From sequence record MZ956761.1: DNA of 64,000 nt; one strand, written 5' to 3'. The DNA is from a phage. Below are positions 2,957 to 55,174 of the stretch, piece after piece (the stretch's first letter is position 1; every line of letters starts with the position of its first letter). Below the pieces are notes generated by a model, which saw only the letters and a list, made by a program, of their open reading frames with translations, was not told the origin of the DNA and searched no databases. A program made the position numbers and the translations under genes.

Positions 2957-3637
2957 ATGATAGATAAAGATTATATTGCAGAGCTGAAGGCTCTTGATGA
3001 TAATAAAGAAGCTAAAGCTAAATTAGCTGAATATGCTGAACAGTTTGGTATAAAGGTCAAAAAGAATAAATCTTTTGATAATATCGTTAATGATATTGAA
3101 GAAGCCCTCCAGAAGCTCGCTAGTGAACCTATGCCAGAGACTGATGGGTTATCTATTAAAGACTTAATTGATGCTGCTGATGCTGCAGACGGATTAAAAT
3201 ATGACGATGAAGAAGTCAATCCAGAGGCAGCACTTCTGATTGATTCTCCGGTTAAATCTGACATTAAAATTGAAGTAGTAGAAACGGATAAAATTCTTGA
3301 AAATACCGATGTTTTGATTGAAGATACTCCTTTTGTTGAAGAAAAATTCGAGCAGGCTGTAGCTGAGATTATTGAATCTGAAAAGCCGTCTGTATTTACT
3401 CTTCCGGAAAACTTTAGTCCGAATCTTCAGCTGATTGGAAAAAATCCAGGATTCTGCACTGTTCCTTGGTGGATTTACCAGTGGATTGCTGAAACTCCGG
3501 ATTGGAAATCTCACCCAACTAGTTTTGAACATGCGTCGGCACACCAAACTTTATTTAGCTTAATTTACTACATTAATCGTGACGGATCAGTTCTAATTCG
3601 TGAAACACGTAATTCTTCTTTCGTAACATTAAAATAA
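2957..3637 (+). CDS. inh: Inh, inhibitor of prohead protease
   Basis: 226 aa, matches T4 Inh length and position next to hoc. Confidence 0.75.
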   Translation: MIDKDYIAELKALDDNKEAKAKLAEYAEQFGIKVKKNKSFDNIVNDIEEALQKLASEPMPETDGLSIKDLIDAADAADGLKYDDEEVNPEAALLIDSPVKSDIKIEVVETDKILENTDVLIEDTPFVEEKFEQAVAEIIESEKPSVFTLPENFSPNLQLIGKNPGFCTVPWWIYQWIAETPDWKSHPTSFEHASAHQTLFSLIYYINRDGSVLIRETRNSSFVTLK

Positions 3638-4866: not shown

Positions 4867-5082
4867 ATGAGATTGATTATGAGAACTGAGGTTGTGGTGT
4901 TTACTCTTCATGAGTCTGGAAAGTCATTCATTGAAATTGCTCGTGAATTGAACTTACAGGCAAAGGAAGTGGCTGTATTATGGGCTCGAGCTATGACTGC
5001 TAAGAATAAATTTGAAACTCGAGAAAAAGTTGTCTATAGAAAAAGGCATATTAATAAAAAGGTGAAAAATGGAACAGTATGA
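4867..5082 (+). CDS. hypothetical protein (position of T4 24.3)
   Basis: 71-aa ORF; true start may be the internal Met at 4879. Confidence 0.45.
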   Translation: MRLIMRTEVVVFTLHESGKSFIEIARELNLQAKEVAVLWARAMTAKNKFETREKVVYRKRHINKKVKNGTV

Positions 5083-5347
5083 TCTTTATGAAAATGAATC
5101 TTTTGCTAATCAATTACGTGAAAAAGCACTTAAAAGTAAACAGTTTAAACTAGAGTGTTTTATTAAAGATTTTTCGGAACTTGCTAATAAAGCAGCTGAA
5201 CAAGGTAAAACATATTTTAGTTATTATTGTACTGCTCGCGATAAATTGATTACTGAAGAAATTGGTGATTGGCTGAGAAAAGAAGGATTTAGCTTTAAAG
5301 TCAATAGTGATCAGCGTGATGGTGATTGGTTAGAAATTACATTTTGA
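5069..5347 (+). CDS. hypothetical protein (position of T4 24.2)
   Basis: 92-aa ORF overlapping the previous stop. Confidence 0.5.
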   Translation: MEQYDLYENESFANQLREKALKSKQFKLECFIKDFSELANKAAEQGKTYFSYYCTARDKLITEEIGDWLRKEGFSFKVNSDQRDGDWLEITF

Positions 5348-5356
5348 GGATTAATT

Positions 5357-6361
5357 ATGTTTAAAAAGTATAGCAGTCTTGAAAATCATTACAACTCTAA
5401 ATTTATTGAAAAACTTTACAGTTTAGGATTGACTGGCGGCGAATGGGTAGCTCGTGAAAAGATTCATGGTACAAATTTCTCGCTAATTATTGAGCGTGAT
5501 AAAGTAACTTGTGCTAAACGTACTGGTCCTATTCTTCCTGCTGAAGATTTCTTTGGGTATGAAATTATTTTGAAGAATTACGCTGATTCCATTAAAGCAG
5601 TACAAGAAATTATGGAAACTTCAGCGGTTGTATCTTATCAAGTCTTTGGTGAATTCGCCGGACCTGGCATTCAGAAGAATGTCGATTATGGTGATAAAGA
5701 TTTTTATGTATTTGACATTATTGTTACTACCGAAAGTGGTGATGTGACTTATGTCGATGATTATATGATGGAATCATTCTGTAATAAATTTAAATTTAAA
5801 ATGGCTCCACTTTTAGGTCGCGGTAAATTTGAAGAGCTGATTAAATTGCCAAATGATTTAGATTCTGTCGTACAGGATTATAATTTTACGGTAGACAATG
5901 CTGGATTAGTTGATGCAAATAAATGCATTTGGAATGCCGAAGCAAAAGGCGAAGTATTTACCGCTGAAGGATATGTATTGAAACCTTGCTATCCTTCTTG
6001 GATGCCTAATGGTAATCGCGTAGCTATCAAATGCAAGAACTCTAAATTCAGTGAAAAGAAAAAGTCTGATAAGCCTATTAAAGCTAAAGTTGAGTTGTCA
6101 GAAGCTGATAATAAATTGCTGGGAATTTTAGCTTGTTACGTTACACTGAACCGAGTAAATAACGTTATTTCTAAAATTGGCGAAATTGGTCCAAAAGATT
6201 TTGGAAAGGTGATGGGACTAACGGTTCAAGATATTTTGGAAGAAACTTCTCGTGAAGGTATTACTCTAACTCAAGCGGATAATCCTTCTTTGATTAAGAA
6301 GGAATTAGTTAAAATGGTACAAGATGTACTTCGTCCGGCTTGGATTGAATTGGTAAGTTAA
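5357..6361 (+). CDS. rnlB: RNA ligase 2
   Basis: 334 aa; nucleotidyltransferase motif I KIHGTN. Confidence 0.9.
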
Positions 6362-6392: not shown

Positions 6393-7674
6393 ATTCATCA
6401 ATGATAATTTTTGGTAGTTTAACACCTAATAAAACAGACAAATCTGAACGACCCGCCATTTTATCCATGTCTCCACCGTCAATTACTCTTGCTTCTTTTT
6501 CATCTTTTGCTACAGTGTAAGGATTTGCAGATAAAGCATATCTAACTAATAAACCGATAGATGGCTGCAAACTTTCTGGATCGACTACAACTTTAAATGC
6601 ACCTACATGTTCAGGGTCATCTAAGTCAAGACCTTCTGTATACGGAGCATAGAAAATTGACCCAACAATTTCTTTTTCACCGATATTTTCTACTACGCCA
6701 ACGATTACATAATCTAATGGGCTGTTGGTATCGCAATAAAGTGGTAAACCATTAGCTAAGAACCCGTAGGCATTTTGTGAAAGATATTTGTCATCTTCTG
6801 GTTTATGTTTTAACCAACCTGATGCAGCAAGAATCGCAGCAGCACGAGCTGAAGCAACACAGAACGTTGCAGTATAAGTTGATTCTTTTTGGATATGCGA
6901 AACCATTTCACATACCATTCGGTATAATGAACGACCAGCTTCAGGCGCAGATGCATAACTCAAATCAATGAATCCAGTATCAGTAATTCCTGTAACTTTA
7001 TAGCGTTTTGACACTGTAATCAAAGACTGCAGAATATCTTTATTGATTTCATCTGCCATTTCGGTTGCAAGCAAATCTTCCAAGAAATTAGGAGCATCGA
7101 ATCCGTTTGCTTCTAAATCTTGTGCTAATTCAACTGTGATGCCAGTTTTAAGTTTACGAGATTTAACTGCGGTTTGCCATTTATTAATCTGGAATCTAGC
7201 ATCCGCAATTTCACTATCAGAGCTTTCAAATTTGCTTGTTACTGCAGCATCAGAAAATAGACGAACCTTTAAAAGAACAATTGCAATCTGAAGAGCTAAT
7301 TCTAAATCACTTTCTTCAATATCAGCAAATGGTGTATCTTCTAATACTTTATAAACGATATTATTATATTTGAATAAATCGCCTTTATTGAGAGTTAATT
7401 TAGACTCTTCTGTTAATTCTGTGATTTGTTCTCGGTCTACGTATCCAGCTTCGCCGGCGTAAGTAGCACCAGTTTTAAATGTAAATTCGTTATCTGGGTT
7501 AAGGTATTTGATACCATAAAAAGCAGCAACAGGTTGATTAGTTCTTTGCGTTGCTACAATGTCAGAATATATTAATTTAGTGGTAGCGCGAGTCAAAGCA
7601 ACGAGATTTGGGCGACCGATTGAGTTGCTATTCGTTGTGGTTGATTCGCGCAGAAGTTCGTTGATTTTAGCCAT
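6391..7674 (-). CDS. 24: gp24 capsid vertex protein
   Basis: 427 aa; next to gene 23. Confidence 0.9.
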   Translation of the reverse strand: MAKINELLRESTTTNSNSIGRPNLVALTRATTKLIYSDIVATQRTNQPVAAFYGIKYLNPDNEFTFKTGATYAGEAGYVDREQITELTEESKLTLNKGDLFKYNNIVYKVLEDTPFADIEESDLELALQIAIVLLKVRLFSDAAVTSKFESSDSEIADARFQINKWQTAVKSRKLKTGITVELAQDLEANGFDAPNFLEDLLATEMADEINKDILQSLITVSKRYKVTGITDTGFIDLSYASAPEAGRSLYRMVCEMVSHIQKESTYTATFCVASARAAAILAASGWLKHKPEDDKYLSQNAYGFLANGLPLYCDTNSPLDYVIVGVVENIGEKEIVGSIFYAPYTEGLDLDDPEHVGAFKVVVDPESLQPSIGLLVRYALSANPYTVAKDEKEARVIDGGDMDKMAGRSDLSVLLGVKLPKIIIDE

Positions 7675-7701
7675 TGCGCTTTCCTTTTGGTTTATATGAT
7701 T

Positions 7702-7709
7702 TATTTATA
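7702..7709 (-). promoter_or_regulatory. T4-type late promoter for gene 24
   Basis: TATTTATA on plus strand about 28 bp upstream of gene 24 start. Confidence 0.5.
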
Positions 7710-7725
7710 CCATAAAAACAACTAA

Positions 7726-7743
7726 AGGGACCCGAAGGTCCCT
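7726..7743 (-). terminator. hairpin after gene 23
   Basis: AGGGACC-CGAA-GGTCCCT inverted repeat just downstream of the gene 23 stop. Confidence 0.5.
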
Positions 7744-7757
7744 TAAATCGTCAAAGA

Positions 7758-9323
7758 TTAGATACCTTTAACATATACACGGCGGAAGTAAGCGTTTTTA
7801 CCAAGGCTATTCAGAATAGAAGGCATACCGCTCTGGATGCGAGAAGCCGGAGCCTGAGCAGCGGATTCTGCAAATGGGTTGATACCGATACCGTAACGAG
7901 TTTTGAATCCCATTACTGGTTGGAAGTTCTTCGGATCGGAACCACGCAGCGGAGTCAGAGCTACATATGGAGCGTAGTAAATACCAGCATCCATTTCGTT
8001 CGGACCTTTATAACCTACAGTGAAATAATCCTGTTTAGCATACTGGTCGATATATACACGGTATTTACCACCCAGAACACCAGCAAATACTGACTTGGTA
8101 GTATCAGTGTTAAAGCCGGTAGCCAGACCCTGTGCAGCATAAGAAATGCCAGTATCAACTGAAGCCAGAACGTTAACTACGTTACGGGAAGCGATAATGA
8201 AGTTACCTTCACCACGACCGGTCTGACGAGCAATTTCAACTGCTTCTTTGTCAATCTGGAACAACAGAGCTTTAAAGGATTCACCCGCCCAGCGAGCACC
8301 ACGAATATCAATCGGATCCTGGAAGTCAAATACACCAGCTTTAGAACCCGGAGTCAGGGTCATACCAGATTTACCAACCTGAGCTGAGTAGTTAATCCAA
8401 TCAACAACTTCACGGTTGATTTCCAGCATGATTTCGGTAGCCAGAATACCAGACAGTTCAGCATCAGCATCCATACCGTGAACAGCGCGGAGGTCTTGTG
8501 CTAATTCGATAGAGTAAGCAGCTTTCAGCTGACGAGATTTAGCTTCGATAACTTGTTTATCAATACGGAAGCCCATTTCATTCCATGGGTTATCGGTAGA
8601 ACCGTTGAAACCTTCCTGAAGTTCAGCGATAGAAGTAGCCATACCTTCAGCGATTTCTACCAGTACACCAGCTTCCATTTGTTTCTTAATTTCAGCATCT
8701 AATTTAGCTGCGTCATCTGCAGTAGAACTAATTGTTACTTGAGCAGAAGCTTGCAGATACACAGTACCAGTGTCCTGGAAGAAGTGAGTATAGATATCAC
8801 CTACTGTAGTTTGCGTGCTAGCAGCCAGAGCTGGGAATTTCTTAGCAGCACCCTGACCAGAGAACATTGCATCTGGACCATACATTGGGTGGAATGCTTC
8901 TTTAGCACCGGCAGCGATTGGGTCTTTACCATATACTGCGCGCAGTGCGAATACCTGGCCAGTCGGGCTGTTCATCGGCTGAACACCGCAAATATCGAAA
9001 GCAATCAGGTTAGGAATAGCACGACGTACCATACCCATAACAGCTGGGCCAATCTGAGTTACTGCGCCAGAAGTCTGACCAGCAGCGATGTTAGTAGCGT
9101 TGTAACCGTGGTCACCACCGATTTCAGCTTCTGTTAAGAAAGAACCAAACGCCTGAGCGATTTTTTCGTCTTTGTATTCTGGAGCTGTCTGGAAATCTTT
9201 TTCCTGGTTTTCAAAGATTTTAGCGATAATCGCTTGTTTGCTATTAGCAATTTCCGGTAAACCTTCACCTTCCAGTAATGGCTTCCATTTGTTCAAAAGT
9301 TCAGCTTTAGTTTTGATAGTCAT
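7758..9323 (-). CDS. 23: gp23 major capsid protein
   Basis: 521 aa; MTIKTKAELLNKWKPLLEGEG N-terminus recognised as T4 gp23. Confidence 0.95.
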   Translation of the reverse strand: MTIKTKAELLNKWKPLLEGEGLPEIANSKQAIIAKIFENQEKDFQTAPEYKDEKIAQAFGSFLTEAEIGGDHGYNATNIAAGQTSGAVTQIGPAVMGMVRRAIPNLIAFDICGVQPMNSPTGQVFALRAVYGKDPIAAGAKEAFHPMYGPDAMFSGQGAAKKFPALAASTQTTVGDIYTHFFQDTGTVYLQASAQVTISSTADDAAKLDAEIKKQMEAGVLVEIAEGMATSIAELQEGFNGSTDNPWNEMGFRIDKQVIEAKSRQLKAAYSIELAQDLRAVHGMDADAELSGILATEIMLEINREVVDWINYSAQVGKSGMTLTPGSKAGVFDFQDPIDIRGARWAGESFKALLFQIDKEAVEIARQTGRGEGNFIIASRNVVNVLASVDTGISYAAQGLATGFNTDTTKSVFAGVLGGKYRVYIDQYAKQDYFTVGYKGPNEMDAGIYYAPYVALTPLRGSDPKNFQPVMGFKTRYGIGINPFAESAAQAPASRIQSGMPSILNSLGKNAYFRRVYVKGI

Positions 9324-42088: not shown

Positions 42089-42161
42089 TGGGAATTAGCC
42101 AAGTTGGTAAGGCATAGCACTTTGACTGCTAGATGCAAAGGTTCGAGTCCTTTATTCCCAG
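42089..42161 (+). tRNA. tRNA-Gln (anticodon TTG)
   Basis: Hand-folded cloverleaf: acceptor TGGGAAT/ATTCCCA, T-loop TTCGAGT, anticodon loop CTTTGAC. Confidence 0.7.
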
Positions 42162-42162
42162 C

Positions 42163-42249
42163 GCGAGAATGGTCAAATTGGTAAAGGCACAGCACTTAAA
42201 ATGCTGCGGAATGATTTCCTTGTGGGTTCGAGTCCCACTTCTCGCACCA
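42163..42249 (+). tRNA. tRNA-Leu (anticodon TAA)
   Basis: Acceptor GCGAGAA/TTCTCGC, long variable arm, encoded CCA. Confidence 0.75.
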
Positions 42250-42254
42250 AATTT

Positions 42255-42328
<74 letters not shown>

Positions 42329-42338
42329 ATTTAATCTA

Positions 42339-42412
42339 CTCCGTGTAGCTCAGTTTGGTAGAGCGCCTGATTTGGGATCAGGAGGTCCAAGGTTCAAATC
42401 CTTGTATGGAGA
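42339..42412 (+). tRNA. tRNA-Pro (anticodon TGG)
   Basis: D-arm TAGCTCAGTTTGGTAGAGC, anticodon loop TTTGGGA, T-loop TTCAAAT. Confidence 0.7.
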
Positions 42413-42414
42413 CT

Positions 42415-42504
42415 GGAGGCGTGGCAGAGTGGTTTAATGCACCGGTCTTGAAAACCGGCAGTCGCTCCGGCGACTCATAGGTTCAAATCCTATCGCCTCC
42501 GCCA
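42415..42504 (+). tRNA. tRNA-Ser (anticodon TGA)
   Basis: Acceptor GGAGGCG/CGCCTCC, long variable arm, anticodon loop CTTGAAA, CCA. Confidence 0.75.
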
Positions 42505-42509
42505 GTTTT

Positions 42510-42585
42510 GCTGATTTAGCTCAGTAGGTAGAGCAACTCACTTGTAATGAGAAGGTCGGCGGTTCGATTCCGTCAATCAGCACCA
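42510..42585 (+). tRNA. tRNA-Thr (anticodon TGT)
   Basis: Acceptor GCTGATT/AATCAGC, anticodon loop CTTGTAA, CCA. Confidence 0.75.
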
Positions 42586-42586
42586 A

Positions 42587-42661
42587 GGCCCTGTAGCTGG
42601 AAGGTTCAAGCAAGCGACTCATAATCGCCAGATGGTGGTTCAATTCCACCCAGGGCCACCA
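42587..42661 (+). tRNA. tRNA with CAT anticodon (Ile2-type or Met)
   Basis: Acceptor GGCCCTG/CAGGGCC, anticodon loop CTCATAA, CCA. Confidence 0.65.
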
Positions 42662-42674
42662 AATTAAGAATTAA

Positions 42675-42761
42675 GGGGAGTTATCCCGTAGAGGTAGCGG
42701 TGTGGACTGTAAATCCATTGTCATTGCGACTCGGGTGGTTCGACTCCATCACTCCCCACCA
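42675..42761 (+). tRNA. tRNA-Tyr (anticodon GTA), type II
   Basis: Perfect 7-bp acceptor GGGGAGT/ACTCCCC, anticodon loop CTGTAAA, long variable arm, T-loop TTCGACT, CCA. Confidence 0.6.
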
Positions 42762-42765
42762 ATTT

Positions 42766-42840
42766 GGATGTGTAGCTCAATGGCAGAGCGATCGCCTGTT
42801 AAGCGATTGGTTATAGGTTCGAATCCTATCACGTCCGCCA
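42766..42840 (+). tRNA. tRNA-Asn (anticodon GTT)
   Basis: Acceptor GGATGTG/CACGTCC, anticodon loop CTGTTAA, T-loop TTCGAAT, CCA. Confidence 0.65.
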
Positions 42841-42954
42841 AATTTGTGACAACTGTCACATTAATATCTACTTGACGCGATTATAGGGGTTGAACTGATC
42901 ACTCTTCTCTTAATTTCGTGTGAAGACATCTTGATTGTTGGAGTAGGTATTAAT

Positions 42955-43030
42955 GTGGCCGTAGTTCAGTTGGTAGAACTCGAGATTGTGATTCTCGTAG
43001 TCATGGGTTCGACTCCCATCGGTCACCCCA
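42955..43030 (+). tRNA. tRNA-His (anticodon GTG)
   Basis: Acceptor GTGGCCG/CGGTCAC, anticodon loop TTGTGAT, T-loop TTCGACT, CCA. Confidence 0.6.
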
Positions 43031-43034
43031 ATTA

Positions 43035-43110
43035 CGGGGCATAGCTCAGAAGGAAGAGCAAGGACCTTCTAAGTCCTAGGTCGTAGGTTCGATCCCTACT
43101 GCCTCGACCA
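43035..43110 (+). tRNA. tRNA-Arg (anticodon TCT)
   Basis: D-arm TAGCTCAGAAGGAAGAGC, anticodon loop CTTCTAA, T-loop TTCGATC, CCA. Confidence 0.7.
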
Positions 43111-43126: not shown

Positions 43127-43477
43127 ATGAAAGGTAATGTTTATTTAGTAGTTCATGATTTAACATTCTATTTTAATCATAATGACACTGTTATTTCTGA
43201 ACGTGTAATTAATTTGCTTTATCAGCACGCAGATTATGTTTATGTCGAAAACGAATATGGTCATTGGCAATTTCTTAAAAATCGTTCATTTGGCTTAGAT
43301 GGTTACGAATACTTTGAACGTAAAGACCTTTTAGATAAAATTCCGTTATCTACACAATATCAAAATCACAAATCTTTATATAAATGCCGACCAATTCGAA
43401 ATGTTGAATCCGCGTATGAAGCAATTGATTTATGGCGTAAACGCCGTGAACAGATTGATGCTTTAAAAGAATATTAA
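43127..43477 (+). CDS. hypothetical protein downstream of tRNA cluster
   Basis: 116-aa ORF with GAGGAAAA SD. Confidence 0.5.
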   Translation: MKGNVYLVVHDLTFYFNHNDTVISERVINLLYQHADYVYVENEYGHWQFLKNRSFGLDGYEYFERKDLLDKIPLSTQYQNHKSLYKCRPIRNVESAYEAIDLWRKRREQIDALKEY

Positions 43478-43479
43478 GA

Positions 43480-43785
43480 AACCGGGTCGCTACCGGTAAG
43501 TCGTCGGACTGATGTTCCCTGAGTAAGGAATTGTGTTAATAAATCTTTATGATTTGTTGATGCCCTCTTACATCACAGCAGAAACGGCGCACCGAATTAT
43601 CGATTCGAGGAAATATCTTTGCCATAAGCCGAGTAGCGTTTTTGACGGAACGTTCGGATATGGTCGAGATATGGCCTTTTAAAAATATTGAGTAGCGTCA
43701 ACTACTTAATAACCGGGTTCGAATCCCGGCGTTTCGTACAAACACTTGCCTTAGCAGGTGGAACCCCGACAAGGTTGCCGCAAGG
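43480..43785 (+). ncRNA. putative small stable RNA(s) (T4 species 1/2-like), tRNA-like elements
   Basis: About 300 bp without ORF; canonical T-arm-like CCGGG-TTCGAAT-CCCGG; ends at a terminator hairpin. Confidence 0.3.
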
Positions 43786-47459: not shown

Positions 47460-47944
47460 TTTTAAAAACTCGCTGGTATGATTTAGATGATGGGGATGAT
47501 GGCATTTCAGTTGATAGAGTTGACTGGAATGGTTGTTCCGAAGATATGAAAAATTTGTTGATTAGGGAGTTTAGAATGGGATATCAAGCAGCTAAGCCAT
47601 TTACTGTAACAGATGATAAGTTCGTATGTATTCAAAACGGTCGCGCTAAGTTAACGAATGCTGATTGGTTCACAGATAAGAAGGTTCTTCTGTGGTATAT
47701 CATTAGTCTTCCTATATCATCGTTCGTATTTTACTTTTTTATAAAAAATCCAATGGACAGAATAGGAGATTGGGTTCTTTTAACTATACTTGTTAATATT
47801 TTTACAGCAGCAGTATTATCAGGAATATGGTACATGTTCATTGAAATGCCATGGCGGTTACGCAGACAGCAAAAGATTTTTGATGAAAAGAAATATACTC
47901 AAAATTTAAATAACTTTATCACTGAATGCAGGAAATTAAAATGA
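47456..47944 (+). CDS. small membrane protein
   Basis: 162 aa, hydrophobic segments; C-terminal FITECRKLK. Confidence 0.5.
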   Translation: MILKTRWYDLDDGDDGISVDRVDWNGCSEDMKNLLIREFRMGYQAAKPFTVTDDKFVCIQNGRAKLTNADWFTDKKVLLWYIISLPISSFVFYFFIKNPMDRIGDWVLLTILVNIFTAAVLSGIWYMFIEMPWRLRRQQKIFDEKKYTQNLNNFITECRKLK

Positions 47945-48381
47945 AAACACTATCAGCTGGTATTATCTTTATGACAGAAGATAAAGATTTATTTATGGGT
48001 CGGGTTACTGGTTCTCGTAAGCCTGGAATGATGGCACACCGCTGGGATATTCCAAAGGGCCGTGTAGAAAATTCTGATTTAAGCGCATTAGATGCAGCAC
48101 GAAGAGAATGTTTAGAAGAGACTGGTTTTAGCAATTATAATCCAGACCTTCTAGAAGACCTAGGTGTATTTAAATATTCTAGTAATAAAGACCTACAGTT
48201 ATTTTATTATACGATTCCAGTAGAGCATGAGATGTTTAGAAATTGCCATTGCGAGTCTTATTTTGAAAATAAAGACGGTGTTATGATTCCAGAGATGGAC
48301 GCTTTTGCTCTTATTCCTCGTACTCAGTGGCAATATGTGATGGGTCCTTCACTTTACCGAATAATGAACAACCTCTTTTAA
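47926..48381 (+). CDS. nudE: NudE Nudix hydrolase
   Basis: 151 aa; Nudix box GRVENSDLSALDAARRECLEETGF; start could also be the Met at 47941. Confidence 0.8.
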   Translation: MQEIKMKTLSAGIIFMTEDKDLFMGRVTGSRKPGMMAHRWDIPKGRVENSDLSALDAARRECLEETGFSNYNPDLLEDLGVFKYSSNKDLQLFYYTIPVEHEMFRNCHCESYFENKDGVMIPEMDAFALIPRTQWQYVMGPSLYRIMNNLF

Positions 48382-48912
<531 letters not shown>

Positions 48913-48916
48913 AGTT

Positions 48917-48946
48917 GTTTACTTTCTCCTAGAATTGTGATAGTAT
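48917..48946 (+). promoter_or_regulatory. T4-type early promoter
   Basis: GTTTAC-N18-TGaTAGTAT upstream of the internal-protein gene. Confidence 0.45.
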
Positions 48947-48983
48947 ATTCACAGTTACTAATTAAAATATTTAAAGGAAACAC

Positions 48984-49301
48984 ATGAAAACGTATAAAGA
49001 ATTTATTGCAGAATCTGCTGCAGGACAACGTGTAGAAGGCGGTTATATCTGGATTGAACAAGTTGAGCCGCCGAGTCGCACTTCTACGGGTAAATGGAAA
49101 ATCACTGTTGATGGTCCTGGTGGTAAACGTAGGACTCTTAAAGAAATTAACGGGTACTATGAAGAAGCTCTTTCTGACGCGGGTACTTATATGATGCAAA
49201 TCATGATTAAAAACCCAGAAAATCGTTTTGCGGCTAGAGTTTTCCGCCGTATTGGAAATAAGCTTTATGATGCATATTCTAAAAACTTTCCTAAAGAATA
49301 A
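48984..49301 (+). CDS. internal head protein (IPII/IPIII-type)
   Basis: 105 aa; N-terminal MKTYKEFIAE capsid-targeting tag. Confidence 0.7.
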   Translation: MKTYKEFIAESAAGQRVEGGYIWIEQVEPPSRTSTGKWKITVDGPGGKRRTLKEINGYYEEALSDAGTYMMQIMIKNPENRFAARVFRRIGNKLYDAYSKNFPKE

Positions 49302-49317
49302 AAATTAAAGGATACAC

Positions 49318-49791
49318 ATGAAAACATATCAAGAATTTATTACTGAAGCAGCTATTAATTCTCAAATTATTGCTGAATCTTTTACTGATCTTTTGAAATT
49401 TAAAAAAGGTCAAAAAATCACTGCTGTATTGGATGATGGTACAGAAGTTGAGATGGATGTACAGGGATATAATTATGCAGTAGATGGAAAACTGTATAAT
49501 AAATCTCATGCTAAATTTGATTCATTTGACGACTTTGTTAATACAGTTGAAGATGAAAAAACTCGTAGATCCATTGCAACTGGTGATGCTAAGGTTCTTA
49601 TGGCACATGGTCATGAACGCATTCGCGCTAAACAGAATAAAATGGGTGAAGATAATTTTGCATTAGTTGGTTATCAATCTGGTAAACAAACTTATGGCTA
49701 TCAGCGTACTGCTACCATGTATAACAAAAATGGTAAAATCGCTTTCGTGAATAGCAAAGGCTCTATTCAGTACGTCAAATCATTCAAATAA
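49318..49791 (+). CDS. internal head protein (IPII/IPIII-type)
   Basis: 157 aa; N-terminal MKTYQEFITE capsid-targeting tag. Confidence 0.7.
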   Translation: MKTYQEFITEAAINSQIIAESFTDLLKFKKGQKITAVLDDGTEVEMDVQGYNYAVDGKLYNKSHAKFDSFDDFVNTVEDEKTRRSIATGDAKVLMAHGHERIRAKQNKMGEDNFALVGYQSGKQTYGYQRTATMYNKNGKIAFVNSKGSIQYVKSFK

Positions 49792-49944
49792 GCAAATAAG
49801 AAATATGGGAACAAGCTGGACCTCATGATTCTATGAGGGATTCCCGCCAACCTGTAATAAGGTCGAGCCCAAGCGCGGTAATGGGTAAATACAGAAATGG
49901 ACAATTCATGCGCCATGGAATGGCCCAAATTTAGAGAGAATAAA

Positions 49945-50484
49945 ATGAGAACATTTTTAACTGGTCCTTATCTATCCCTGATGAATGCTTTTACACACCA
50001 TTCTGATGCTAGAGTAGAAGAAATTTGTAAAAACGAATATATCCCGCCATTTGAAGACTTACTCAAACAGTACTGCACACTTCGCATAGATGGTGGACGT
50101 CAATCCGGCAAATCAATTGCTGTGACTAACTTTGCTGCTAATTGGCTGTATGATGGCGGAACAGTTATTGTTCTTTCTAATACTTCAGCTTACGCTAAAA
50201 TTTCTGCAAATAACATCAAAAAGGAATTTTCGCGTTATTCTAATGATGATATACGTTTTCGTTTATTTACTGATTCTGTGCGCAGTTTTATTGGTAATAA
50301 AGGAAGCAAGTTCAGAGGTTTATCGCTTTCGCGAATTTTGTATATAATTGATGAGCCTGTCAAATCTCCTGATATGGATAAGATTTATAGTGTCCATATT
50401 GACACTGTACACTACTGCTGTAATAGTAAATGTTGCATTGGTGGTATTACTCGTCCGCAGTTTTTCGTAATCGGAATGCAATGA
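49945..50484 (+). CDS. small P-loop NTPase-like protein
   Basis: 179 aa from ATG with GAGAG SD; Walker A-like GGRQSGKS and Walker B-like ILYIIDEP. Confidence 0.5.
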   Translation: MRTFLTGPYLSLMNAFTHHSDARVEEICKNEYIPPFEDLLKQYCTLRIDGGRQSGKSIAVTNFAANWLYDGGTVIVLSNTSAYAKISANNIKKEFSRYSNDDIRFRLFTDSVRSFIGNKGSKFRGLSLSRILYIIDEPVKSPDMDKIYSVHIDTVHYCCNSKCCIGGITRPQFFVIGMQ

Positions 50485-50810
50485 TGACAGATACACAGCT
50501 TTTCGAATATCTCTATTTTTCGCCAAAAACTATTAAAAATAAATTGGTAAATCATTTTGAAATTTTGGCAAATAACAACATTTTGAGCGAATTTTATCCC
50601 AAGCAATACAAATTACAAAAAGGTGTATTCAAAGGATGCAGAGTTTTGTGCACTGCTCCTAATGCACGGCTAATGAATAAAATTCCATATTTTACCATGG
50701 AATTTATTGATGGACCTTTTAAAGGATTAATTACGCAAAGTTTAATGGCATATGATTCTGAGCCGTTTTTAATTAAAGAACAATCTTGGATAAATTTATT
50801 TTCTAATTGA
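50481..50810 (+). CDS. hypothetical protein coupled to the P-loop ORF
   Basis: About 110 aa; ATGA start/stop overlap. Confidence 0.45.
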
Positions 50811-50817
50811 GGTTTAT

Positions 50818-51180
50818 ATGAAAGCATATCAAATTCTTGAAGGCACACATAAAGGTACTATTTATTTTGAAGATGGTATTCAGGCACGAATTATTGTCTC
50901 TAAAACCTTTAAAGAGGACTCTTTTGTAGACCCAGAAATTTTCTATGGTTTGCACGCCCGTGAAATTGAAATTGAAACACAACCTACAGTTAAAATTGAA
51001 GGTGGTCAGCACCTGAACGTTAACGTTCTGCGTCGTGAAACTTTGGAAGATGCAGTTAAGCATCCGGAAAAATATCCGCAGCTGACCATCCGTGTATCCG
51101 GTTATGCAGTTCGCTTTAACTCTCTGACTCCGGAACAGCAGCGCGACGTTATCGCTCGTACCTTTACTGAGAGTCTGTAA
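50818..51180 (+). CDS. autonomous glycyl-radical cofactor (GrcA/YfiD-like; T4 Y06I type)
   Basis: 120 aa; C-terminus [29 protein letters not shown] carries the glycyl-radical motif and matches E. coli GrcA as recalled. Confidence 0.85.
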
Positions 51181-54592: not shown

Positions 54593-55174
54593 ATGGCGAG
54601 TTTAATTTTTACTTATGCAGCAATGAATGCTGGAAAATCTGCTTCTCTTTTGACTGCTGCACATAATTATAAAGAACGTGGAATGAGTGTATTAGTTCTT
54701 AAGCCTGCTATTGATACTCGCGATTCTGTCTGTGAAGTCGTTTCTCGCATTGGAATTAAGCAGGAAGCGAATATTATTACAGATGATATGGATATTTTCG
54801 AGTTCTATAAATGGGCTGAAGCACAAAAAGATATTCATTGCGTATTTGTAGATGAAGCTCAGTTTTTAAAAACTGAACAGGTGCATCAATTGAGCCGAAT
54901 TGTTGATACATATAATGTTCCTGTTATGGCTTATGGGCTAAGGACTGATTTCGCTGGAAAATTATTTGAAGGTTCTAAAGAACTTTTAGCGATTGCAGAT
55001 AAACTTATTGAACTAAAGGCAGTTTGTCATTGTGGTAAAAAAGCGATTATGACAGCTCGATTAATGGAAGATGGAACACCAGTTAAAGAAGGTAATCAAA
55101 TCTGTATTGGTGATGAAATTTATGTTTCTTTGTGTAGAAAACATTGGAATGAATTAACTAAAAAGCTCGGTTAG
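54593..55174 (+). CDS. tk: thymidine kinase
   Basis: 193 aa; P-loop YAAMNAGKS and C-terminal Cys zinc site. Confidence 0.9.
   Translation: MASLIFTYAAMNAGKSASLLTAAHNYKERGMSVLVLKPAIDTRDSVCEVVSRIGIKQEANIITDDMDIFEFYKWAEAQKDIHCVFVDEAQFLKTEQVHQLSRIVDTYNVPVMAYGLRTDFAGKLFEGSKELLAIADKLIELKAVCHCGKKAIMTARLMEDGTPVKEGNQICIGDEIYVSLCRKHWNELTKKLG

Follow-up and report, generated by a model that had tools for sequence, protein, structure and literature searches.

The locus described here lies in a 64,000-nucleotide stretch of the phage sequence record MZ956761.1 (hereafter the window), which represents approximately 38% of a genome of roughly 167 kb. It is the region between gene e, which encodes T4 lysozyme, and the vs gene cluster, where a first-pass annotation had expected the gene of the pyrimidine-dimer repair enzyme endonuclease V, denV, and had reported instead a pair of open reading frames (ORFs) with P-loop-like motifs. 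The 2.8 kb surrounding this site match 863 phage records, the best of which are Tequatrovirus sequences with 96–97% identity (FelixPlatter, Ozark, SH7, G50 and UFV phages), and no phage record was near-identical to a 25-kb window query over its whole length. Judged from its sequence, the source of the window is a mosaic, unsampled Tequatrovirus (T4-like coliphage). The locus comprises the following features:

48418–48912, plus strand: gene e (T4 lysozyme), the left anchor of a variable cassette; 97% identity to T4 e over 164 amino acids (aa; tblastn)
48913–48983, plus strand: e-to-ip intergenic region, with a leader as before ipIII in T4 and ipIV in T2
48984–49301, plus strand: ipX, internal-protein-like, 105 aa, starting with MKTYKEFIAE (phrog_3966, E = 5.8e-34)
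49318–49791, plus strand: gene of an Ip4/IpIV-type internal virion protein, 157 aa (Pfam DUF7412, E = 5.7e-96; phrog_3155, 'internal virion protein', E = 6e-102)
49792–49944, plus strand: spacer of 153 bp between the ip4 stop and the vs.8 start
49806–49926, plus strand: conserved non-coding element that fills the spacer, a predicted structured RNA (covariance model, indels, covariation in helix P1)
49945 (ATG) to 50482–50484 (TGA), plus strand: vs.8, 179 aa, predicted single-domain P-loop NTPase (phrog_1488, identity to T4, motifs)
50481–50810, plus strand: vs.7, 109 aa (99% identity to T4 Vs.7; phrog_2049, E = 3e-54)
50818–51180, plus strand: vs.6, GrcA-like glycyl-radical protein, the right-hand anchor (98% identity to T4 Vs.6; Pfam Gly_radical, E = 2.2e-18)

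The 179-aa and 109-aa ORFs are T4 vs.8 and vs.7, which form the conserved flank of the cassette in all the phages compared below, and nothing has taken the place of denV. Window vs.8 is 93% identical to T4 Vs.8 over the shared frame (97% for a frameshifted N-terminal piece; tblastn), matches phrog_1488 over residues 3–179 (E = 3e-79) and is syntenic with T4; vs.7 belongs to the phrog_2049 family and overlaps vs.8 in an ATGA at 50481–50484, which suggests translational coupling. GGRQSGKS (Walker A-like), ILYIIDEP (Walker B-like) and the overlap are all present as first reported, and the spacer, estimated at about 150 bp, is indeed of that size; the second ORF, given as 110 aa, is one residue shorter. 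T4 is annotated in the order e, ipIII, ipII, denV, vs.8, vs.7, vs.6, which agrees with the map used in the first-pass annotation. Its vs.8 (NP_049732) and vs.7 (NP_049731) are orthologues with 93–99% amino acid identity to the window pair, in the same order, with the same ATGA overlap and the same neighbours (vs.6/GrcA-like, regB, vs and tk); since vs.6 follows vs.7 in the window, the vs cluster goes on as in T4. The first-pass annotation had allowed that T4 itself might carry the pair at this position, in which case its map would be wrong: the pair is there, but the map was right. Unlike that of the window, T4 vs.8 is annotated with 40 additional codons, an extension that is frameshifted in the window and overlaps the conserved RNA.

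Both genes upstream of the spacer are of the internal protein (Ip) type of T-even phages, as had been proposed, in that their products open with MKTY(K/Q)EFI and they adjoin gene e. They are not ipIII and ipII, however: the first encodes a phrog_3966 protein, whose similarity to T4 IpII and IpIII is confined to the first 12–14 residues, and the second, with its TAA stop codon at 49789–49791, encodes the DUF7412 protein and occupies a slot annotated as ip4 or ipIV in T2. What the two proteins have in common with T4 IpII and IpIII is limited to the MKTYxEFIxE N-terminus. The e-to-vs region is a known variable cassette, which holds ipX and ip4 without denV in the window and is arranged among the phages compared as follows:

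T4: e, ipIII, ipII, denV, vs.8
teqhal, PhiZZ23, slur and JK38 (teqhal type): e, denV, ipX, ip4, vs.8
T2: e, ipIV, vs.8
window, Ozark, FelixPlatter, SH7 and G50: e, ipX, ip4, vs.8

The teqhal/PhiZZ23-type locus is 95.6–97% identical in nucleotide sequence to the window on both sides and carries the same two ip genes; the sole difference, as placed by the blastn break points with teqhal, is a 423-bp stretch with denV between the e-proximal sequence and the ip leader, where the window has 9 bases (48960–48968). The DenV encoded there is 78% identical to T4 DenV. When the window is compared to T4, homology ends within the first codons of the first ip gene (~49023) and resumes at 49803, the exact counterpart of the T4 denV stop codon. 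The T2 locus resembles that of the window in the absence of denV, both at the locus and in the genome, and in having an Ip4/IpIV-type protein directly upstream of the RNA element and vs.8; it differs in carrying one ip gene rather than two, and a frameshifted vs.8 where the window gene is intact. At the e–ip junction, the window has the leader sequence that stands before T4 ipIII and T2 ipIV, and the difference from teqhal could therefore reflect either loss of denV here or its gain in the teqhal lineage. A potential denV remnant at the junction, AAAATATTTA, common with the end of the teqhal-type denV, proved to be part of the ipIII/ipIV leader. We also note that in T4 and T2 a 17-nucleotide (nt) segment (TGAATAGACAATTACT) lies between e and the ip leader, with a direct repeat CA(G/A)TTACT on both sides; the window (48913–48983), Ozark and FelixPlatter have one copy of CA(G/A)TTACT, which fits a deletion between short repeats.

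Six-frame tblastn searches of the window gave no match with T4 DenV and noise only (E ≥ 2.7) with the divergent teqhal-type DenV, and blastn with both denV genes returned only chance matches of 13–21 nt. The window therefore contains no ORF homologous to the ~138-aa DenV, in agreement with the first-pass annotation. What can be set against absence of the gene from the phage as a whole is that 64 kb of the genome are visible; because the window is the fraction given above, absence elsewhere is inferred from relatives. FelixPlatter, whose junctions are those of the window and whose identity to it over this region is 97%, shows no DenV homologue in its complete genome by tblastn with both variants (best E = 4.4), and the same searches of the complete T2 genome were equally negative (best E = 4.6). 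Among the 30 best-matching records for the 2.8-kb region, 18 align in one piece and list no denV annotation, while the other 12 align in two pieces separated by ~400 extra bases and carry a denV-type annotation; Ozark and teqhal are the two that were inspected in detail. The phage is thus very probably without denV anywhere, and the earlier suggestion that it lacks the repair enzyme, directly seen for the window and extended to the genome through FelixPlatter and T2, is probably right.

Two other explanations of the locus were considered. That denV is present in this phage outside the window is quite unlikely. Although most of the genome lies beyond the 64 kb analysed, and denV is already placed differently in T4 and in teqhal-type phages, the gene sits inside the e-to-vs.8 cassette in both denV-carrying relatives inspected (T4 and teqhal), has a comparable position in other Tequatrovirus matches whose records share the coordinate origin of T4, and has no copy anywhere in the two complete genomes with a denV-less cassette. 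The notion that denV gave way to a cassette made up of the P-loop ORF pair, possibly with an alternative repair function, is scarcely credible, even though the pair falls into the slot expected for denV when genes are counted after the internal-protein genes, and a profile search of the PDB gives a weak alignment of the vs.8 Walker B region to UvrA chains (E = 0.05–0.17, not significant). In T4 the pair lies just downstream of denV, side by side with it, and in teqhal-type phages an identical pair accompanies denV; since both carry denV and the same pair, the pair is not its replacement, and the 'instead' of the first-pass annotation does not stand. The high identity of the pair to T4 vs.8/vs.7 and the presence of vs.8 in 1,010 phage records argue in the same direction. 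We thus assign the locus with high confidence to vs.8/vs.7 preceded by a denV-less cassette and a non-coding conserved element; the functions proposed below for Vs.8, Vs.7 and the RNA are much less certain.

A phage of this kind would simply be without pyrimidine-dimer glycosylase, so that its sensitivity to ultraviolet (UV) light would be expected to be about that of T2, with reliance on host repair and recombination repair. Streisinger (1956) and Harm (1963) are said to have traced the greater UV sensitivity of T2, as compared to T4, to a single locus. Together with the absence of denV from T2, this makes natural lack of the gene in a T-even phage expected and already known, and the denV-less cassette an ordinary finding.

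Conservation is higher in the spacer upstream of vs.8 than in the flanking genes. A 145-nt query retrieved 1,078 phage records, including Klebsiella and Enterobacter T4-like phages whose Vs.8 is only 36–45% identical. The conserved element lies on the gene strand and extends from the T4 denV stop codon to ~20 nt before the vs.8 start; in T4 it is located at ~64,815–64,939 of NC_000866 (complement). Its parts in the window are:

49807–49811 paired with 49841–49845, plus strand: helix P1
49821–49826 paired with 49833–49838, plus strand: hairpin P2
49850–49853 paired with 49860–49863, plus strand: hairpin P3
49850–49888, plus strand: nearly invariant 39-nt core, ACCTGTAATAAGGTCGAGCCCAAGCGCGGTAATGGGTAA
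49897–49926, plus strand: 3' block, found in T4-like phages only

The architecture consists of a variable P1, a P2 hairpin that is present or absent, a short P3 (CCU-GURNNA-AGG) and the nearly invariant UCGAGCC-NNAG-YGCGGUAA. P1 closes the 5' domain, and its 3' strand always ends 4–6 nt before the core, while its sequence changes from class to class: GGGAA/UUCCC, GGGG/CCCC, GGAAC/GUUCC and GGAG/CUCC, with further classes UGAGUG/CACUCA, GUGUAU/AUACAC, AAAGG/CCUUU and AAACA/UGUUU. In an alignment of 20 sequences, all five P1 pairs change on both sides, and 97% of the cells are paired, versus 25–53% when the partner is slid by 1–3 columns; the covariation score of 0.605 compares to 0.21 for shuffles, and none of 500 shuffles reached it. 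Since the 5' strands of P1 were located by searching for complementarity, the firmer evidence is compensatory change within classes, at positions fixed by the alignment. Such changes are seen in P1 (GGGAA/UUCCC to GGGAG/CUCCC; UGAGUG/CACUCA to UGAAUG/CAUUCA; AAAGG/CCUUU to AAAGC/GCUUU to AAAGA/UCUUU), in P2 (CCUCAU/AUGAGG to CCUUAU/AUAAGG) and in P3 (CCU/AGG to CCA/UGG). Covariance model R1, built from the alignment, matches the window at 49806–49888 with 99.2 bits (E = 3.5e-27) and detects members outside its seed at E values of 1e-7 to 1e-16, tandem second copies included. It finds exactly one copy each in the window, in complete FelixPlatter and in complete T2, and one in the two stretches of T4 that were scanned. 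Tandem double copies precede the vs.8 homologue in some T4-like contigs (~172–177 kb where the size is known; L051 5094–5304, L057 8967–9178, L138 309–520).

Outside T4-like phages, the core pattern ACCUGUAAUAAGGUCGAGCC-NNAG-YGCGGUAA occurs in rV5-like Vequintavirus, in Pseudomonas phage PsgM04F and in further viral and metagenomic contigs of 14–148 kb. A search of 185,579 bacterial and archaeal species, with one genome for each, did not find it. At the non-T4 loci with tRNA genes in the fetched stretch, as detected by ARAGORN, the element always lies in or beside the tRNA array and on the tRNA strand, and the fetched flanks of the rV5-like and Pseudomonas-type loci contain no Vs.8 homologue. 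At the T4-like loci examined the element is located 5' of a vs.8 homologue, to which it is adjacent wherever the flank was read. A cmscan of window positions 48900–50900 against Rfam 15 (E up to 10) gave no sense-strand match within 49792–49944; a chance snoRNA-type match on the opposite strand overlaps 49758–49835. No Rfam 15 match was found at the element in four related loci (E up to 1) or in four further loci (E up to 0.01). The element shows no similarity to T4 rnaC or rnaD, its core sequence was not found in the open-access literature searched, literature on vs.8 and on T4 non-coding RNAs was likewise blank, and a T4 transcriptome paper does not mention it. We give about even chances to the spacer being a member of an undescribed, phage-specific family of structured RNAs.

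Several observations weigh against a structured RNA. For individual sequences, a shuffled sequence reaches the same P1 helix score in 1–48% of trials, and the spacer gains nothing over shuffled sequence in minimum free energy (z = -0.3). The core and the 3' block are nearly without variation and thus cannot show covariation. Expression or end-mapping data for the element were looked for in the literature, and none were found. RNAalifold also proposes a long-range helix in which GGUCG..CC..GCGCG of the core pairs with UGCGC..GG..UGGCC of the 3' block; both strands are nearly invariant, with no covariation, and the helix is partly broken in the L040 clade.

The conservation of the spacer could in principle have another cause. 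The T4 RefSeq record treats it as coding for an N-terminal extension of vs.8, its 219-aa protein NP_049732 having a start 40 codons upstream of the 179-aa form, and in the window an in-frame ATG at 49897 would give a 195-aa ORF. This is very unlikely, since in the window the T4 extension has its first 32 residues in another frame than the rest of the protein, the spacers of relatives differ by indels of 1 and 6 nt, the third codon after the internal AUG is a stop in one relative, and variable positions are spaced 5 nt apart, not 3. The additional 16 codons of the 195-aa ORF are not kept as a reading frame, the tblastn homologue matches listed start at query residues 1–5 (M-R/K-T-F-L-T, that is MRTFLT or MKxLT), and the annotated T4 ATG falls inside the P2 hairpin (L003 5254–5913 versus window 49833–49944). 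Alternatively, the spacer could be kept as a DNA-level signal, such as a promoter, a recombination site or a homing-endonuclease target. Its position at the edge of a recombining cassette would agree with this, as would a nearly invariant 39-nt core common to unrelated phages, which is typical of mobile or target sequences, and the fact that homing endonucleases are often found in tRNA clusters, as segB is in T4. We nevertheless consider it unlikely, as compensatory changes retain the pairing of P1, P2 and P3, a T-G wobble in one P2 variant would turn into an A-C mismatch on the opposite strand, the element is on the tRNA strand in every non-T4 locus checked with ARAGORN, and no sigma-70-like promoter or terminator is predicted within 49792–49944.

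From these comparisons, the T4 RefSeq start of vs.8 is probably over-extended by 40 codons, the real start being the methionine of MRTFLT, which gives a protein of 179 aa. An upstream ORF was also considered, as the 3' block opens with AUGGA and forms a 16–19-codon upstream ORF or extension in several phages; it was rejected because of the stop at codon 3 and because the variation does not fall at third codon positions. In teqhal (L001 ~3455–3480) the conserved vs.8 start reads ATA, not ATG, and vs.8 is annotated from a point 12 codons further downstream; ATG is present in a near-identical metagenomic relative (L131).

If the spacer does specify an RNA, its product would be a small RNA that is stable or processed, or else a leader working with a trans-acting partner, rather than a device for vs.8 only. 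With regard to a cis-regulatory leader or riboswitch of vs.8, the element lies 5' of vs.8 in the T4-like loci examined and occurs without a vs.8 homologue in the fetched rV5-like and Pseudomonas-type flanks; no terminator is predicted, and no pairing with the ribosome binding site was demonstrated. Because the same RNA family is found in the tRNA clusters of unrelated virulent phages, we infer that it does not serve vs.8 alone; conservation across phage families, together with the association with tRNA arrays, would speak for a role in trans. Possible roles include tRNA or translation biology, a decoy or antidote against host defence, and a small ribozyme. Threading the core by eye onto consensus sequences of hepatitis delta virus (HDV)-like, hammerhead, twister, pistol and hatchet ribozymes and of group II domain 5, which was done informally, gave no fit. 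Mimicry of the 16S rRNA 530 loop, suggested by a common CGCGGUAAU, was discarded, since the match covers 9 nt only and the complementary part is absent outside T4-like phages.

Comparable phage RNAs are rnaC and rnaD of T4 and the larger GOLLD and ROOL. Like the element, these are phage-encoded, non-coding and of unknown function; rnaC and rnaD lie within tRNA clusters, as do the non-T4 members of the element, and GOLLD and ROOL adjoin tRNA genes. The element differs from them in having no sequence similarity to rnaC or rnaD and no match in Rfam, which would include GOLLD and ROOL models. With ~70–120 nt it is also much smaller, and its place in T4-like phages is directly 5' of vs.8, at a distance of 7 kb from the tRNA cluster. 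In the Pseudomonas-type class (L042 10506–10720, L046, L055, L069, L120 and L139; contigs of 6–70 kb), we observed two long outer helices around the element, GCUCUUAUC/GGUAAGAGC and GUUGUGAC/GUCACAAC. The same outer-helix sequence is met again immediately downstream, suggesting that related RNA units form arrays among the tRNA genes. In L060, a 90-kb viral contig with a divergent copy of the element, the 3 kb downstream of the tRNA cluster contain three group I introns (5067–5318, 5955–6177 and 7636–7951).

Database searches were of limited help in characterizing the two proteins. PHROGs places vs.8 and vs.7 in families of unknown function (1488 and 2049), and neither has a significant sequence match to a solved structure (PDB sequences). 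For vs.8 nothing significant was found in Pfam, NCBIfam or PADLOC, with one non-significant match to HerA (E = 0.019), and vs.7 has no match in Pfam, NCBIfam, PADLOC or PDB sequences and no detectable relatives outside phages. The P-loop character first attributed to the 179-aa ORF is borne out by its Walker motifs and by the fold model. Walker A spans G50–S57 (GGRQSGKS), and Walker B with its glutamate I131–E137. A profile search of 1.84 billion representative proteins placed the vs.8 family in 41 clusters, nearly all of them stand-alone proteins of 166–185 aa. An alignment of 36 members shows little or no variation at G51, R52, Q53, G55 and K56 of GRQ[ST]GK[ST]; R113 and G125 hardly vary, most members retain the hhhh[DE]EP Walker B block, and a C-terminal strand PLFFVIGMQ recurs.

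An AlphaFold2 model built from the 36-sequence alignment is confident, with a predicted local distance difference test (pLDDT) score of 85 and a predicted template modelling (pTM) score of 0.84. With Walker A, Walker B plus catalytic glutamate and a RecA-like core, vs.8 is predicted to be a single stand-alone RecA-like P-loop domain of the additional strand catalytic E (ASCE) group. In the model, it appears related to the ATPase of the large terminase subunit (TerL), such as T4 gene product 17 (gp17), and to domain 1 of superfamily 2 (SF2) helicases. Its Walker A shares the R-Q-x-G-K-T form with gp17, and weak terminase links come from phrog_2 (E = 6.8e-6), from Pfam Terminase_6N in 10 of the 36 members and from a gp17 PDB chain (E = 0.017). 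Unlike the gp17 ATPase and DEAD-box/SF2 RecA1, however, vs.8 is a single 179-aa domain with no nuclease and no second RecA domain. We therefore rejected it as a terminase: it has the ATPase-like domain without the RNase H-like nuclease, the window protein scores 12.9 bits against Terminase_6N (cut-off 22), and the real gene 17 is located elsewhere in T4-like genomes. An SF2/DEAD-box helicase was likewise rejected, as there is one RecA domain rather than two in tandem with motifs I–VI.

The fold, the motifs, the translational coupling and the neighbourhood (regB, vs and the GrcA-like gene) form the basis of a working model, in which vs.8, acting with vs.7, to which it appears translationally coupled, would hydrolyse NTP as part of an accessory, dispensable early function on nucleic acid, possibly RNA. 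It counts against this model that the fold match concerns a very common domain and says little on the substrate. Two separate GenBank records of T2 (L008 3676–4036, MH751506; L143 12267–12910, LC348380) show vs.8 broken into two or three frames; it is probably a pseudogene there, and these frameshifts suggest that the gene is dispensable in the laboratory.

As stated, the denV-less finding adds little, since natural absence of the gene is known and vs.8 and vs.7 are annotated T4 genes. It does show that denV presence varies among phages that are ~96% identical in this region, so that work on UV inactivation or dosimetry with 'T4-like' phages should not assume the resistance of T4. What is worth keeping is the probable over-extension of vs.8 in the T4 reference annotation and the conserved RNA element of the spacer. 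T4, whose genome is among the best studied, appears to carry a conserved structured RNA that we have not found described and that is common to unrelated phages, where it lies amid tRNA genes. This RNA can be tested in T4 itself, and could offer a first handle on the uncharacterised vs.8/vs.7 pair.

Beyond the cassette, nudE lies at 47926–48381 on the plus strand (99% identity to T4 nudE; tblastn), and the thymidine kinase gene at 54593, also on the plus strand. Further upstream, positions 42089–43110 contain eleven tRNA genes, as compared to eight in T4, the additional ones being Tyr, Asn and His; a tRNA with a CAU anticodon, called Met by ARAGORN, occupies the slot that T4 annotates as tRNA-Ile. 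The set and order of these genes are as in FelixPlatter, not as in T4. Between tRNA-Arg and an rnaD-like sequence (AGAAACCGGGTCGCTACCGG), the window carries an ORF of ~116 aa (~43127–43480), whereas in T4 rnaD follows tRNA-Arg directly. ORFs of similar size are present in the same position in FelixPlatter (bas40_0242) and T2 (T2_136), the correspondence being one of size and position.

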